Of a DNA stretch of 702 nucleotides, positions 1 through 702 are shown piece by piece. Source of the stretch: Escherichia coli (GTDB taxonomy: Bacteria; Pseudomonadota; Gammaproteobacteria; Enterobacterales; Enterobacteriaceae). The stretch lies in the NCBI RefSeq assembly GCF_003334385.1, contig NZ_QOWN01000148.1. One strand, written 5' to 3'. Below the pieces are notes generated by a model. The model saw only the letters and a list, made by a program, of their open reading frames with translations, was not told the DNA's origin and did not search any database. Position numbers and translations under genes: made by a program. How positions within the stretch are numbered: position 1 is the stretch's first letter; each line of letters starts with the position of its first letter.

Positions 1-667
1 CCGCCGTCGCGCTTTTAGTACTGATATATACATCGTGGATTTTGCGTCGCGCATGAGCCCAGCATCCTGCTTCCGTCAACGCGCCGCCTTCACGTTCGGC
101 ACTGAACAGCCGATCGTAACCATTAAACGCATCTGCCTGCAGGATACCCCGGAAGGGACGAAGGTGCTGCTCCGGATGTTTACCCTGATGATCCGGTGAG
201 TAGGCGAACCAGACCGCCGGAGGCTCTGGCGAACCGGCATTCCTGTCATCCCGGACATACGTCCAGATATATCCTGTTTTCGCCTTCTTCCTGCCCGGCG
301 CCAGTACCTTTACCGGTGTGTCGTCAGTGTGAAGCTTGAAGGTATTCATCACGTAACGGTACAGGGCATCATTCAGTGGCGTCATTAACTGGCAGCACTC
401 GTCAACCCAGTTGGAGAGTAATGCACGGCTCAGTTCGACGCCCTGGCGGGCAAAGATTTCACTCTGACGATACAATGGCAGGTGTTCGCAGTATTTTCCC
501 GTTAACACGCGGGCAAGTAACCCCGGGCCCGCGACACCACGCTCTATCGGACGGGACGGTGCTTCAACGATGCAGTCACATTTTGTACAGGCTTTTTTTA
601 CCCGTTCTGTGCGGATCACTTTCAGGGCTCTTCCGCAACCTGGGTGGAGATTTTCATGCCAGTGGAC
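1..667 (-). CDS. tnpC: IS66-family transposase (TnpC/ORF3-like DDE transposase), internal fragment; 3' end continues beyond the left window edge, 5' side closed by tandem stops at 668..673 (probably frameshifted)
   Basis: Reverse-strand translation in the frame with codons ending at + strand 667 gives 222 codons with no stop: [222 protein letters not shown]. Motifs I recognise as IS66-family signatures: Cys/His-rich zinc-finger-like segment (572..646), [10 protein letters not shown] (455..484), HTDDTPV with the first catalytic Asp (about 311..331), YVRDDRN (239..259), AVWFAYSPD (191..217), [10 protein letters not shown] with the second catalytic Asp (116..145), CWAHARRK (41..64). No in-frame ATG lies upstream within the window, which is why an ATG-to-stop ORF finder misses it. 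Confidence 0.85.
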
Positions 668-702
668 TCATTACCCTCTGCCTGAGTAGTTCAAATCCTG
701 CT
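1..702 (-). mobile_element. Interior of an IS66-family insertion sequence (transposase-coding portion only; no terminal inverted repeats in the window)
   Basis: The whole window is covered by an IS66-type transposase reading frame plus its upstream continuation in another frame. In IS66-family elements tnpC is the third and largest ORF, so the element ends and the tnpA/tnpB ORFs are expected outside the window (tnpA/tnpB to the right, the 3' IS end to the left). This is inference from family organisation, not seen in the sequence. Confidence 0.7.
1..702 (-). pseudogene. Probable frameshifted IS66-family transposase: upstream segment in a second reading frame (657..701, ...[15 protein letters not shown]) joined to the main frame (1..667) by an apparent 1-nt frame change near 668..673
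   Basis: The main frame is preceded by tandem TAA TGA stops (minus-strand sense; + strand 668..673). A second frame on the same strand is open from the right window edge to a TGA at 654..656 and ends ...LLRQRVM. Read together, ...LLRQRV / [12 protein letters not shown] resembles the conserved LPRE-x-VV-(x)n-C-x-C-G region that precedes the zinc finger in IS66-family transposases. That is the pattern expected from a 1-nt indel, not from a real gene boundary. Confidence 0.5.

Follow-up and report, generated by a model that had tools for sequence, protein, structure and literature searches.

The change of reading frame at positions 654-673 of the window, the 702-nt stretch of DNA analysed here, is almost certainly the boundary zone of two unrelated genes on the same strand, namely ISEc38, an insertion sequence of the ISL3 family, inserted in an IS66-family tnpC gene (estimated probability about 0.97). 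According to this reading, ISEc38 would have transposed into tnpC between codons 165 and 166, duplicating the 8-bp target CTGAAAGT and separating the N-terminal region of TnpC from its catalytic part. The resulting order on the minus strand is the stop codon of the ISEc38 transposase (656-654), the terminal inverted repeat (648-626) and then the 3' two-thirds of tnpC from position 625. Alignments to complete genomes, plasmids and a metagenome contig show what each segment is and where exactly the junction lies; they also show the inverted repeats, the target duplication in a sister copy and the nested-IS surroundings of the exact window. The nested insertion itself is ordinary and already annotated in many E. 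coli genomes, and there is nothing new about it: in complete genomes, PGAP calls an ISEc38 transposase followed by an 'IS66 family transposase, incomplete, missing N-terminus', and resistome and mobilome surveys list ISEc38.

The high end of the window is formed by the last 77 nt of ISEc38 (626-702, minus strand), comprising the C-terminus of its transposase, the stop codon and the terminal inverted repeat, with the remainder of the element lying past the window's edge. This segment is 100% identical to ISEc38 ends found beside different genes in many E. coli records, where the match falls under the PGAP label 'ISL3-like element ISEc38 family transposase'. The 3' end of the transposase gene occupies 654-701 on the minus strand and consists of the last 15 codons and a TGA stop at 656-654; all 15 residues match positions 525-539 of the 539-aa ISEc38 transposase. 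The 539-aa protein encoded in E. coli SK6988 (locus L002) scored 376 bits against the NCBIfam model NF033550 transpos_ISL3 (cutoff 180). In SK6988, ISEc38 measures 1722 bp (L002 1356-3077) and is delimited by a pair of 23-nt inverted repeats, GGTTCTTCCGCAACTTGGGTGGA and TCCACCCAGGTTGCGGAAGAGCC, which are 91% complementary and lie at 1356-1378 and 3055-3077. The terminal inverted repeats begin GGTTCTTCC and GGCTCTTCC; the window carries one arm, the one at the transposase-stop end (TCCACCCAGGTTGCGGAAGAGCC; 626-648, minus strand).

The rest of the window (1-625, minus strand) is an internal fragment of tnpC, extending from the codon for Leu166 (position 625) to approximately codon 375 (position 1) of a 537-aa relative and continuing past the low end. 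An intact IS66-family relative, the copy of E. coli STEC1590 (locus L001; TnpC WP_105475127.1), shows the canonical order tnpA, tnpB, tnpC, an order also present in SK6988; ISEc8 is a more distant relative. Positions 1-625 correspond to residues 166-375 of this TnpC with 97% amino-acid identity. The BLASTP alignment to the intact protein (L001 2512-4125) covered residues 165-375 with 205/211 identical positions, homology beginning at A165/L166, and nucleotide identity to the L001 gene was likewise 97%. In the metagenome contig that contains the exact window (OAWU01000802.1, locus L005; window at 3896-4597), the open reading frame with the tnpC fragment reached 326 bits against NCBIfam NF033517 transpos_IS66 (cutoff 180). 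Compared with the intact relative, the tnpC of the window is cut at codon 166 by ISEc38 and carries a two-codon in-frame deletion, and in L005 it is cut a second time further downstream by an IS110-family element. The only possible start of the remaining frame is an internal GTG at 619-617, giving a 353-aa ORF in L005. Because it has lost its N-terminal third and is truncated at the 3' side in L005, this tnpC is an insertion-disrupted pseudogene fragment without its first 165 residues, which include the LPRE motif and a CxxC zinc-finger-like motif.

The exact junction was located by alignment. The window was compared by megablast with 5,426 complete E. coli genomes, using its reverse complement as the minus-strand query, in which nt 1 corresponds to window position 702. 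All matches to IS66-family tnpC genes (96-97% identity) began at query nt 72-75, and the few records spanning the whole query were annotated as 'ISL3-like element ISEc38 family transposase' followed by 'tnpC: IS66 family transposase'. In a three-way alignment, the window was base-for-base identical to the ISEc38/tnpC junction of SK6988. The intact tnpC of STEC1590 was unrelated upstream of the point at which ...GCC gives way to CTGAAAGTGATCCGC and 97% identical downstream of it, both in the three-way and in the BLAST alignments; in the former, its divergence was complete upstream of ...GCCCTGAAAGTG. A 103-nt junction query was then placed in its database contexts: taken by themselves, its first 77 nt recurred at 100% identity in many records in which ISEc38 is flanked by something else, such as an ISEc8 tnpC or a fliM/fliN-family gene, and identity to ISEc38 ends in these other contexts broke exactly at nt 77. 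Since the same 77 nt recur in unrelated contexts, the ISEc38 terminus is window position 626 and tnpC starts at 625, and the string expected at the junction is the ISEc38 inverted repeat followed directly by CTGAAAGTGATCC.

The first tnpC bases past this junction are one copy of the 8-bp target-site duplication, CTGAAAGT (618-625, minus strand). In SK6988, tnpC is present on both sides of ISEc38, and the same octamer stands at either end of the element (L002 1348-1355 and 3078-3085); in the intact tnpC it occurs as a single copy (L001 3007-3014). A target duplication of 8 bp is expected of the ISL3 family. The far flank of ISEc38 in L005 is IS2, so that the duplication can be demonstrated only in the SK6988 sister copy. 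The left tnpC half of SK6988 has GCT as the codon ahead of the duplication, in contrast to the right junction, which reads GAGCC/CTG; the terminal GCC is therefore ISEc38 sequence, and its likeness to the codon for Ala165 is no more than coincidence.

The original prediction had taken the two frames for halves of one TnpC, a continuous gene broken by a 1-nt indel or a sequencing error, an explanation to which we assign practically no chance. Its starting observations were accurate, as translation placed the tandem stops TAA (673-671) and TGA (670-668) in the minus-strand frame from 700 and the end of a second frame, the one from 701, at the TGA 656-654. Two open frames thus abut on one strand, and superficial likenesses, of LLRQRV to LPRE and of HPGCG to a CPxCG motif, also speak for a single broken gene. 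However, the supposed upstream half of tnpC is the C-terminus of the ISEc38 transposase, identical at 15/15 positions. The nucleotide-level alignment to intact tnpC that the prediction proposed stops abruptly at 625/626, with no continuation in a shifted frame. Intact TnpC reads ...LPREIHRLEPEESCCPECGSELDYLGEVSAEQLELVSS immediately ahead of the codon-166 region, and an uninterrupted gene would read CPECGSELDYLGEVSAEQLELVSS-ALKV; the 36 residues between LPRE and ALKV in the intact protein are found in none of the window's frames. The proposed reconstruction of an LPRE-RVV-H region proved spurious: the real LPRE occupies residues 127-130, which places it 36 residues ahead of the break. Likewise, the peptide following the tandem stops, which had been assigned to the transposase, comes from translating the stop region and inverted repeat of ISEc38 in the tnpC frame, where TCCACCCAGGTTGCGGAAGAGCC yields the spurious ...HPGCGRA. 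The zinc-finger look-alike HPGCG was rejected on the same ground, as an artefact of translating ISEc38 sequence.

The prediction's view that tnpC cannot begin at this point held, as the residues upstream of 166 are missing relative to intact TnpC, although the shortfall is about 165 residues according to the alignment to the intact protein and not roughly 100. It was also right in calling the transposase inactivated; tnpC is dead, but the cause is an IS insertion, with homology to tnpC ending at 625/626, rather than an indel or a sequencing error. Programmed ribosomal frameshifting of the kind known from IS3-family transposases, which the prediction had considered unsupported, finds no support here either, given that the two ORFs encode different proteins and that no X_XXY_YYZ motif occurs on reading 650-680. 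The tandem stops (668-673, minus strand) lie inside the ISEc38 transposase coding sequence, out of frame, and are functionless; in the transposase frame these positions are G-GTA-ATG-AGT (Val-Met-Ser). A pair of adjacent stops outside the coding frame of the underlying gene carries no statistical weight. The case matters mainly for annotation, where the 'upstream half' of a supposed gene turned out to be another element: where stops and a change of frame accompany a transposase fragment, the first possibility to test is an IS-in-IS junction, and only then a frameshift or sequencing error.

A separate concern is that the junction might be an assembly chimera, in which ISEc38 and IS66 copies were joined via a short shared string and which is absent from cells. 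The sole exact full-length match to the window lies in L005, a short-read metagenome assembly of a repeat-rich region made up almost wholly of repeated IS fragments, and neither the complete E. coli genomes nor the PLSDB plasmids contained the full 702 nt at 100%. Against this stands the 103-nt junction query, which was identical at 103/103 positions in SK6988, whose complete chromosome shows the 8-bp target duplication in proper form, and was matched at 99% identity on eight independently assembled plasmids. Moreover, an exact 110-nt string covering the junction and a window-specific 6-nt deletion in tnpC was present in two separate metagenome contigs. Together, these matches leave a chimeric origin hardly credible.

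The tnpC portion of the window is a mosaic. The window matches SK6988 at every position of ISEc38 (77/77) and of the first 69 nt of tnpC; distally, in window 1-302, 55 of 300 positions (~18%) are mismatched. Relative to the STEC1590-type gene of L001, it shows 3/69 mismatches near the junction and 1/302 distally. From about window position 517 downward, tnpC is nearly identical to the STEC1590 type and ~18% off SK6988. We infer that the junction of the window descends from the same transposition event as that of SK6988 and that later recombination probably substituted other sequence for its left flank and for the distal tnpC. As the tnpC is mosaic with respect to the SK6988 copy, a single-event origin does need such later recombination; the simplest reading of the sequences would be that ISEc38 inserted once and that IS66 relatives then recombined homologously, with a breakpoint near window 518-556. 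Independent insertions of ISEc38 at the same nucleotide of different tnpC genes, with CTGAAAGT as a preferred target, would also place one junction in tnpC backgrounds ~18% apart distally, and other ISEc38 copies, too, have left flanks ending in ...AAAGTG or ...ATAGTG. Yet the 69 nt of tnpC adjacent to the junction are identical in the window and SK6988, with L001 differing at three positions there, and divergence appears only further from the junction, the signature of a recombination breakpoint. Most ISEc38 copies, in addition, sit in unrelated targets. Recurrent insertion at one site is thus the less likely alternative to a single insertion with recombination, and on the whole unlikely.

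A further proposal concerns an outward-reading ATG of ISEc38 (655-657, minus strand), which overlaps the stop codon of its transposase (ATGA) and opens a short frame at 622-657 in the frame-1 translation. In the window this frame consists of only 11 codons before a stop at 624-622, so no fusion arises there. In STEC strains such as E2865, PGAP annotated the same ATG as the start of a 523-aa ISEc8-family TnpC (L003 3546-5117 in E2865); this 'ISEc8 family transposase' ORF is a hybrid, with ISEc38 supplying its first 11 codons. That the interplay of ISEc38 and IS66 elements is non-random, with repeated insertion at CTGAAAGT in divergent tnpC genes and ATG fusions re-expressing the truncated genes, nevertheless strikes us as very improbable.

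The surroundings of the exact window in L005 consist of broken elements throughout. From the low end, the contig holds an AraC-family regulator (1049-1882), a 3' remnant of tnpC (1932-2150), an IS110-family element (2211-3344), the middle part of tnpC including the window (3598-4526), the 3' part of ISEc38 (4521-5041), an IS4-family element inside ISEc38 (5212-6330), the 5' part of ISEc38 (6380-7589), a truncated IS2 (7579-8325) and a 52-nt left-end remnant of IS66 (8337-8388). ISEc38 continues past the window and is split by the IS4-family element; its remainder matches the L002 copy at 99.2-99.8% identity. The other end of ISEc38 is degenerate and borders on the truncated IS2; the 5' part of tnpC with the first 165 codons is not adjacent to it. 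Of the IS66 element, only the 52-nt remnant and two tnpC fragments are left; tnpC is split again by the IS110-family element. The locus, a nest of decayed insertion sequences, shows no sign of new biology, and an Rfam scan of the window at E<=1 returned no RNA family. The 110-nt junction-plus-deletion string had 0 matches in species-representative genomes, and a phage collection yielded only IS66 tnpC relatives and one ISEc38 end, with no junction found.

Compared in full with plasmids, L005 gave piecemeal IS matches only, the best in E. albertii and E. coli plasmids. For its non-IS flank with the AraC-like regulator (1-1930), megablast returned nothing from PLSDB and a single stretch of 195 nt from the complete E. 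coli genomes; in view of this lack of a close DNA match, the window's replicon does not correspond to a plasmid type sequenced from E. coli. The regulator itself is 277 aa long, with HilD as its best NCBIfam match at 107 bits, far below the cutoff.

Two details of the ISEc38 copy in L005 were also observed. The first two bases of its inverted repeat are GA instead of GG. Both in L005 (7591-7620) and in STEC E2865 (L003 1828-1855), the far end of ISEc38 adjoins one and the same flank of ~21 nt, GTCACGAACGGTGCAATAGTG, which in L005 lies within the truncated IS2. The right flanks differ, being codon 166 of the IS66 tnpC in L005 and the 5' end of an ISEc8 tnpC in E2865. This combination of a shared far flank with differing right flanks points to exchange between ISEc38 copies.

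Nested insertion sequences of this kind also occur on Escherichia virulence plasmids. On plasmids of enteroaggregative E. coli, the ISEc38/tnpC junction adjoins aggABC; of the eight plasmids with the junction, all three that were inspected or named carried AAF/I fimbrial genes or a pAA label. On these AAF/I (pAA-type) plasmids, PGAP calls partial or frameshifted pseudogenes at the junction. The window differs from them in its distal tnpC and in its neighbours, which are the AraC-like regulator and the IS110, IS4 and IS2 fragments. In the two AAF/I plasmid loci L004 (1-1460) and L007 (1-960), the junction lies ~500 bp downstream of aggA, and the left flank of ISEc38 is an IS21-family fragment.

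Within the tnpC fragment, nucleotide and protein alignments to the intact gene located the 6-nt in-frame deletion at 557/558 (minus strand), where Ala-Pro is lost from EAP[AP]SRP. The deletion sits in a short direct repeat, GCGCCAGCGCC, of the intact gene. At the same spot, SK6988 differs from the window in length by 7 nt and carries a frameshift annotation; the site appears to be indel-prone. Finally, a run of seven T on the plus strand (593-599) reads A7 in gene sense, within GTA AAA AAA GCC (Val-Lys-Lys-Ala). The run has the form of an A_AAA_AAA slippery heptamer and is conserved in intact tnpC homologues; because it is in frame in these homologues, no frameshifting is implied, and homopolymer sequencing errors would be especially likely there.
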